Source: Escherichia phage vB_ECOLIGBLB0003
Direction: 5' to 3' (one strand)
Length of the DNA: 64,000 nt
Sequence record: PV654517
Notes under the pieces: generated by a model
The model's input: only the letters and a program-made list of their open reading frames with translations
Databases searched by the model: none
What the model was told of the DNA's origin: nothing
Part shown: positions 15,857 through 15,943 of the stretch, piece after piece
How the letters are laid out: each line of letters starts with the position of its first letter
How positions within the stretch are numbered: the first letter of the stretch is position 1
Position numbers and translations under genes: made by a program

Positions 15857-15943
15857 TGGTGGGGAGTGGTGGAGTCGAACCACCCGAGTCGTAATGACAA
15901 TGGATTTACAGTCCACACCGCTACCTCTACGGGATAACTCCCC
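15857..15943 (-). tRNA. tRNA-Tyr (anticodon GUA, class II with long variable arm)
   Basis: Acceptor GGGGAGT/ACTCCCC, anticodon stem-loop GUGGA-CUGUAAA-UCCAU, long variable arm UGUCAUUACGACUC, T-arm GGTGG-TTCGACT-CCACC, encoded CCA. Confidence 0.7.

Follow-up and report, generated by a model that had tools for sequence, protein, structure and literature searches.

The tRNA-Tyr gene beside segB in Escherichia phage vB_ECOLIGBLB0003 is the counterpart of the phage T6 gene and belongs to a widespread tRNA lineage of phages and plasmids

Phage T4 encodes eight tRNAs, none of them for tyrosine, yet a first-pass annotation of Escherichia phage vB_ECOLIGBLB0003 (record PV654517) read a class II tRNA-Tyr in its tRNA cluster, next to the homing endonuclease gene segB. 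Is this a functional gene, what would the phage gain from it, and why is it present here and absent from T4? We considered these questions in a window of 64,000 nucleotides, the whole stretch of DNA that was analysed, in which the features of the locus lie as listed in Table 1.

Table 1. Features of the tRNA-Tyr/segB locus, with positions in the window
Feature	Position	Strand	Basis
tRNA-Tyr(GUA), class II, 87 nt, CCA encoded, anticodon 15907-15909	15857..15943	minus	ARAGORN, RF00005, covariation, 2 nt off T6 tRNA-Tyr
Connector from acceptor stem to D stem, unpaired, U8 A9 U C (canonical: two nt)	15933..15936	minus	MFE fold, Rfam alignment, register test
Variable arm, nt 45-59, stem GUC/GAC, loop AUUAC	15885..15899	minus	Sequence reading
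T-arm sequence GGTTCGACTCC, fits SegB core motif GGTTCRANTCC	15871..15881	minus	Sequence; motif from PMC2330249
Microhomology, upstream copy ATTAATTAG, 5' edge of tRNA-Tyr	15943..15951	minus	Same sequence and offset as T6
Microhomology, downstream copy ATTCATTAG, inside segB	15225..15233	minus	718-bp offset as in T6
segB, GIY-YIG homing endonuclease, 221 aa, Y17 and G19 present	15145..15810	minus	Pfam GIY-YIG E=1e-5; phrog_314 E=8e-50
Spacer from tRNA-Tyr 3' end to segB ATG, 46 nt	15811..15856	minus	Sequence
CAU tRNA, ARAGORN 'Met'	15953..16029	minus	Identical to T4 gene annotated tRNA-Ile, plus encoded CCA
tRNA-Arg(UCU), downstream end of segB-linked block	15065..15139	minus	ARAGORN, alignment

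ARAGORN called a tRNA-Tyr(gta) at this place, as one of the eight tRNAs of the cluster, and the gene has a single copy in the window. Its sequence, GGGGAGUUAUCCCGUAGAGGUAGCGGUGUGGACUGUAAAUCCAUUGUCAUUACGACUCGGGUGGUUCGACUCCACCACUCCCCACCA, divides from 5' to 3' into the arms GGGGAGU-UAUC-CCGU-AGAGGUA-GCGG-U-GUGGA-CUGUAAA-UCCAU-U and then GUC-AUUAC-GAC-UCG-GGUGG-UUCGACU-CCACC-ACUCCCC-ACCA. The acceptor stem has 7 bp and is followed by a discriminator A and the encoded CCA, the anticodon lies in a 7-nt loop (C-U-G-U-A-A-A) with U33 and a purine at position 37, and the long variable arm has a stem of its own. The anticodon loop CUGUAAA, the T arm GGTGG-TTCGACT-CCACC, the 3-bp variable stem and the CCA thus all read as first described, and all of them sit on the reverse complement; the variable arm, originally put at 14 nt, counts 15. 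The match to Rfam RF00005 lies close to the gathering threshold (30.3 against 29 bits, E=8.4e-5 in a 201-nt search), and the other seven tRNAs of the cluster scored 49-75 bits. Clan competition in Rfam initially left a tRNA-Sec match (RF01852) alone, and RF00005 passed in a region search with gathering thresholds; an identity as tRNA-Sec was ruled out by a score of 35.6 bits, below the threshold of 47, by the anticodon GUA, where tRNA-Sec has UCA, and by a 7/5 geometry of acceptor and T stems in place of 8/5 or 9/4. The single-sequence fold is a cloverleaf of unexceptional energy (z=-1.0). On its own the sequence is a modest tRNA candidate, and it is the comparative evidence that is decisive.

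Homologues were found by BLAST in 1351 phage records; among the matches listed, many are annotated as tRNA-Tyr, for example those of T6, RB3, PST and rV5. We assembled 60 distinct members of this lineage, drawn from phages in GenBank, plasmids of E. coli and contigs of IMG/VR; 45 of them were aligned, the other 15 being near-identical variants. In the acceptor, anticodon, variable and T stems of the 45 sequences 98.9% of cells pair, and compensatory change on both sides is found in 16 of the 24 pairs, a figure that none of 500 shuffles reached and that slid controls came nowhere near; in the variable-arm stem it extends to all three pairs. The anticodon loop, the D-loop GG, the T loop and A73 are conserved, and the variable loop sequence varies freely. 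Judged from this alignment, purifying selection acts on the structure of the tRNA. Lineage covariation, the ARAGORN call and the RF00005 match together bear out the identity and the extent first proposed for the gene.

Why the covariance model scores it so low becomes apparent in the D arm. The acceptor stem, T arm and D-loop GG are canonical, but a connector of 4 nt separates the acceptor stem from the D stem with the best support, where canonical tRNAs have two nucleotides, according to a 2020 review of non-canonical tRNAs. ARAGORN draws the canonical register, with a 2-nt connector and the pairs U10.G, C-G, C x C and C-G; this register was rejected, as only 55% of its D-stem cells pair across the 45 lineage sequences and its central pair never forms. 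The shifted register is 100% paired in the same sequences. It consists of U8 A9, two or three variable unpaired nucleotides (UC, GU, GA, UA, UU, AU, UUU or AUU in the lineage), a stem CCGU/GCGG and a loop A-R-N-(N)-G-G-Y-A, giving a connector of 4-5 nt and a D loop of 7-8 nt, and it puts A14, G15, G18-G19 and A21 at the expected places for tertiary contacts. The MFE fold and the Rfam alignment both select it, the latter at the expense of two acceptor pairs, which explains the low RF00005 score. The D stem is invariant and was partly fixed by the second collection pattern, so it offers no covariation; a BLAST-derived set chosen without a D-arm pattern has the same motif. Since nt 8 to nt 27 span 20 nt both here and in E. 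coli tyrU, the D hairpin is shifted and not inserted.

The same gene is labelled tRNA-OTHER or tRNA-Pseudo in some RefSeq records, and the rV5 record gives a Cove score of 43.9 for tRNA-Tyr. In view of the covariation, and of the northern and rescue data published for T6 (PMC13096335), these labels and this score probably stem from the lineage-wide 2-nt shift of the D hairpin and not from decay. The first-pass annotation had named a pseudogene score or another identity as counting against its reading, and the RefSeq labels go part of the way towards such an outcome, but the same covariation and T6 data speak against decay. No discussion of a 4-nt connector in phage tRNA-Tyr was found in the sections covered of PMC13096335 and PMC11555353 or by term searches of the 2020 review, and an MFE survey of connector lengths in 100 or more unrelated phage tRNA-Tyr genes was too noisy to rate its rarity outside the lineage. 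If the connector is real in three dimensions, it could also account for the reported instability of the T6 tRNA-Tyr.

The gene is the same as that of phage T6, where it is already known, annotated and functionally studied. T6 (AP018814; EcT6_00128, EcT6_00127) has the same succession of tRNA-Arg, segB (a 666-bp ORF), a 46-nt spacer, tRNA-Tyr, a 9-nt spacer and tRNA(CAU), and the block from tRNA-Arg through segB and tRNA-Tyr to tRNA(CAU) (15060-16035) is 99.6% identical over 976 bp. Two substitutions distinguish the tRNA-Tyr genes. C41, a U in T6, turns a G.U pair of the anticodon stem into G-C and is present in RB3 too; A52 (15892), in the variable loop, is a rare G-to-A variant, the position being G in both T6 and RB3. 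C48 (15896) and its UGUCA context are the same in the window, T6 and E. coli tyrU. The clusters also differ, as T6 has tRNA-Gln and no tRNA-Pro or tRNA-Ser, whereas in the window Pro and Ser are present and an HNH endonuclease gene has taken the place of Gln. Just one other of the 1351 records carries a 100% identical tRNA-Tyr, namely PV654520.1, 'Pseudomonas phage vB_PSGBLB0006' (142 kb), which was the closest match to this T4-like region (98.8% over 83% of a 4-kb query); for a Tequatrovirus-like sequence, the host label or the assembly of this record looks doubtful.

In T6 the gene has been tied to antiphage defence. Chihara et al. (2026; PMC13096335) report that T6 is restricted by Septu EcB88, which cleaves the variable arm of tRNA-Tyr; the cut lies at C48/A49 in the tRNA of the host and, in that of the phage, at C48, the counterpart of C48 in the window. 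According to the same paper, the T6 tRNA-Tyr is expressed, as detected by northern blot; its overexpression rescues T6 from Septu EcB88, and deletion of the tRNA region sensitises the phage. The tRNA is there termed relatively unstable, and single-copy wild-type T6 remains restricted by Septu. Escapers carry tandem 718-bp repeats comprising tRNA-Tyr and a SegB shortened by 28 aa, which arise via microhomology and need SegB catalysis, UvsX and UvsY; T4, without tRNA-Tyr, cannot escape. A similar effect is known from the T5 family, whose tRNA-Tyr neutralises retron-Eco7 provided that the Tyr anticodon and the stems are intact, as shown by Azam et al. (2024; PMC11555353). T5 and SP15 have a tRNA-Tyr of the same lineage, with the D-arm motif UUA-NN-CCGUA...GGUAGCGG and the variable arm GUC-AUUGC-GAC, and that of the T5-like SPC35 is 82% identical over nt 7-87. 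They, too, counter a tRNA-Tyr-cutting defence by supply, but they belong to another phage family, lack segB and rely on a strong dedicated promoter instead of amplification.

The features of the T6-type module are found in the window: tRNA-Tyr lies directly upstream of an intact segB, and the 718-bp microhomology and the SegB motif are present. SegB, whose YIG region reads ...KIYIGVH..., is identical to T6 SegB at 221/221 positions and to T4 SegB at 209/221. It had been argued earlier that the longest reading of segB overlaps the tRNA and that translation must start at an internal ATG, and both points hold. The longest ORF (15145-15918, GTG start, 257 aa) reaches 62 nt into tRNA-Tyr, and the ATG at 15810, preceded by a Shine-Dalgarno sequence AAGGA, yields 221 aa, the annotated length of SegB in T4, T6 and PST. 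A 9-bp hairpin (15812-15833, minus strand) encloses this AAGGA (z=-2.6 for the 61-nt fold). In T4 a non-homologous and much stronger hairpin covers both the segB Shine-Dalgarno sequence and the AUG (3905-3960 of the T4 segment examined; -19.4 kcal/mol, z=-7.6), so that an occluded start of segB translation is a design common to the window and T4 in sequences that differ. A scan for promoter consensus sequences was uninformative in this AT-rich DNA, with 24 matches against 15 expected.

Brok-Volchanskaya et al. (2008; PMC2330249) found that SegB cuts tRNA genes in the T-psi-C region, with a core GGTTCRANTCC; it prefers a site in tRNA-Asn, whereas the one in the T2L tRNA-Tyr gene is secondary. 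The corresponding T-arm sequence of the window departs at one position from the SITE-seq motif RAWTSGAAC (PMC13096335). The two microhomology copies lie 718 bp apart and agree with those of T6 letter for letter. They match each other at 8 of 9 nt and are visible only on comparing the sites at the published 718-bp offset; a search for exact repeats of at least 7 nt as amplification microhomology found none. Recombination between them would leave 193 aa of SegB (221 minus 28). The window itself bears no tandem amplification, having one tRNA-Tyr and no long direct repeat. The junction of tRNA-Tyr and segB is uncommon: at least 80% of a junction probe was covered in 23 of 613 matching records.

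By analogy with T6, where buffering against defence is the demonstrated benefit of this module, we consider it very probable that the gene encodes a functional tRNA-Tyr that supplements the tRNA-Tyr pool. The tight tRNA array, and what is known of tRNA processing in T4, suggest that it would be transcribed together with the minus-strand cluster and then excised by host processing enzymes. The identity elements of E. coli TyrRS are A73, G1-C72 and U35/G34. The tRNA carries A73, G1-C72 and G34-U35, and these features, together with A36 of the anticodon and the long variable arm, point to charging by the host tyrosyl-tRNA synthetase. The determinants for modification by Tgt and MiaA (U33-G34-U35 and A36-A37-A38) are presumably intact. 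The charged tRNA would enlarge the tRNA-Tyr pool during infection, to the advantage of a Tyr-rich proteome encoded in AT-rich DNA. Tyr accounts for 4.4% of the 17,281 codons in window ORFs (TAT 34.5 and TAC 9.7 per thousand), while in E. coli it makes up about 2.8-2.9% of codons. The larger pool may also buffer the phage against cutters of the tRNA-Tyr variable arm such as Septu PtuAB and retron-Eco7. As the T6 result would imply for this phage, the tRNA is itself likely to be cleavable and so would act by dosage and not by resistance, and SegB could raise its dosage by triggering the tandem amplification of the 718-bp unit of tRNA-Tyr and segB via the ATT(A/C)ATTAG microhomology.

Part of this explanation is shared by a purely translational one, in which the gene supplies Tyr to a proteome that uses this amino acid about 1.5 times as much as the host does and any anti-defence effect is incidental. 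The Tyr content and the dominance of TAT fit such a role, as do the remaining tRNAs of the cluster, which read the A/U-ending codons that the phage favours, and codon compensation is described as the prevailing view in PMC13096335. Yet the GUA anticodon repeats the decoding capacity of the host and adds no codon reading, T4 has the same composition without the gene, and direct genetic evidence connects the orthologues in T6 and T5 with Septu and retron-Eco7 (PMC13096335 and PMC11555353). T4 grows well without tRNA-Tyr despite its similar composition, and the gene is thus dispensable for translation in laboratory hosts. A general benefit from Tyr supply is plausible, but translation as the whole explanation seems unlikely to us. 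Far less credible still is a decaying or non-functional remnant, kept because it falls within the segB co-conversion tract or because it serves SegB as a DNA target. The marginal covariance-model score, the tRNA-OTHER and pseudogene labels, the SegB motif in the T arm and a T4 unharmed, as far as is obvious, by absence of the gene would all agree with such a fate; however, four stems of variable sequence have been kept by compensatory changes across at least seven phage genera and plasmids, the loop positions and A73 named above have been conserved, the orthologue in T6 is expressed and can rescue the phage (PMC13096335), and the segB-free phages RB3 and rV5 have the gene too.

It might instead be supposed that the tRNA is a nuclease-resistant substitute, which its 5-nt variable loop or the rare G52A change makes a poor substrate for tRNA-Tyr-cleaving effectors. 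There is a precedent in that the T5 tRNA-Tyr resists retron-Eco7 through its distinctive variable loop, as noted in PMC13096335; the arm GUC-AUU(G/A)C-GAC is common to SPC35, T6 and the window, as against the 3-nt loop of E. coli, and A52 is just 4 nt from the mapped Septu cut. Septu EcB88 nonetheless cleaves the T6 tRNA-Tyr at C48, and the authors call the degradation indiscriminate; the UGUCA context does not distinguish phage from host, and the variable loop is free to vary in the lineage, so A52 may be neutral. We therefore regard resistance as quite improbable. Somewhat better, but still decidedly doubtful in our view, are the chances that the lineage-wide non-canonical core, with its D hairpin 2-3 nt farther from the acceptor than in any host tRNA-Tyr, has been selected, if real in three dimensions, and changes how host nucleases, modification enzymes or RNase P recognise the tRNA, and that, separately, G52A is an escape variant.

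For annotation, the result is that this tRNA-Tyr is genuine, the pseudo or OTHER labels given to it by some pipelines being wrong, and that the start of segB is fixed. The phage is also marked as a carrier of the T6-type tRNA-Tyr/SegB module, which T4 lacks. Modules of this type are an experimentally established escape from tRNA-Tyr-cleaving defences (Septu, retron-Eco7) by gene amplification, and could matter for host-range prediction or for the choice of therapeutic T-even phages. No new principle is added; only two points might repay work, namely the rare substitution in the variable loop and the shift of the D arm, the latter being, across the phage tRNA-Tyr lineage, a loose thread of some wider interest.

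The gene is not a recent capture from the host, which is ruled out by its 68% identity to tyrU and by matches in E. coli that are confined to plasmids. It resembles tyrU as a class II tRNA with the loop CUGUAAA, A73, G1-C72 and UGUCA at the cleavage site of the variable arm, but in the host tRNA the connector has 2 nt, the D stem 3 bp, the D loop 11 nt and the variable loop 3 nt. Among 5426 E. coli genomes there was no chromosomal match (BLAST, E<=0.01), and all 273 matching places were on plasmids of about 70-120 kb, at 87-92% identity. On one of these, NZ_CP024264.1, the phage-type tRNA-Tyr is part of a tRNA cluster Asn-Tyr-Thr-Ser that has a DNA ligase gene nearby (3921-4471 of the segment examined). 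The E. coli plasmids that bear it are probably phage-plasmids. In all, the lineage extends over Tequatro-, Vequinta-, Certre-, Phapecocta-, Felixouna-, Tequinta-, Jiaoda- and Schiekvirus, and it is found on about 270 plasmids of E. coli and in many contigs of IMG/VR. Its close relatives belong to phage groups that are unrelated, and identity to the window gene is 96.6% in rV5, about 85% in Felixounavirus, about 82% in T5-like phages and in Jiaodavirus, and about 79% in Enterococcus Schiekvirus. The tRNA-Tyr is of an old lineage that circulates among mobile elements.

How, then, did T4 come to be without it? The cluster of the window (15065-16447, minus strand, by ARAGORN) comprises Leu(UAA), Gly(UCC), Pro(UGG), Ser(UGA), Thr(UGU), the CAU tRNA and Tyr(GUA) and then, beyond a 0.7-kb ORF, Arg(UCU). 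The eight tRNAs annotated in T4 (NC_000866) are Arg, Ile, Thr, Ser, Pro, Gly, Leu and Gln, in agreement with the earlier statement that Tyr is not among them. To call the gene non-canonical is right relative to T4 and wrong for the fuller T-even cluster, in which it is present in RB3, was described in T2L in 2008 (PMC2330249) and adjoins segB in T6 and PST. [quoted passage not shown] 2008; PMC2330249). In T4, a 41-nt spacer separates tRNA-Ile from segB; in its place the window has the tRNA-Tyr of 87 nt, with spacers of 9 nt towards the CAU tRNA and 46 nt towards segB. RB3 (NC_025419) has ten tRNAs and no endonuclease gene, in the order Gln-Leu-Gly-Pro-Ser-Thr-Met(CAU)-Tyr-Asn-Arg; its tRNA-Tyr follows tRNA(CAU) after the same spacer and is 2 nt off the window gene, but the next genes there are tRNA-Asn and a tRNA-Arg of another sequence.

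Homology between the window and RB3 stops 4 nt past the CCA of tRNA-Tyr, and segB and a different tRNA-Arg sequence fill the position of Asn and Arg in RB3. Comparison of these clusters indicates that T4 represents a derived, deleted state and that tRNA-Tyr belongs to the fuller T-even cluster as in RB3. Because the preferred cut of SegB is in tRNA-Asn, we infer that the presence of Tyr here and its absence from T4 may reflect the length of the ancestral Tyr-Asn tract that was replaced when segB homed in. A tRNA-Asn remnant was sought around segB in the window and in T4 and none was found, the best local alignments being generic T-arm or tRNA similarity. The segB-linked tRNA-Arg(UCU) of the window, T4 and T6 is very unlike the tRNA-Arg of the segB-free RB3 (1785-1860 of the RB3 segment examined), so the segB cassette apparently came with an Arg tRNA of its own.

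Two further differences within the cluster were observed. The CAU tRNA has an encoded CCA in the window and in PST, and the T4 gene has TATTTT there. tRNA-Gln is absent from the window, and an HNH endonuclease ORF (16454-17086, minus strand; likely start ATG at 17062) occupies its exact place in T4, RB3, PST and T6; the ORF was identified through PHROGs (PHROG 14736, E=6e-124), and Pfam gave nothing. Of tRNA-Gln just the first 7 nt (TGGGAAT) are left, at 17069-17075, where homology to T4 resumes and runs on into trna.2.
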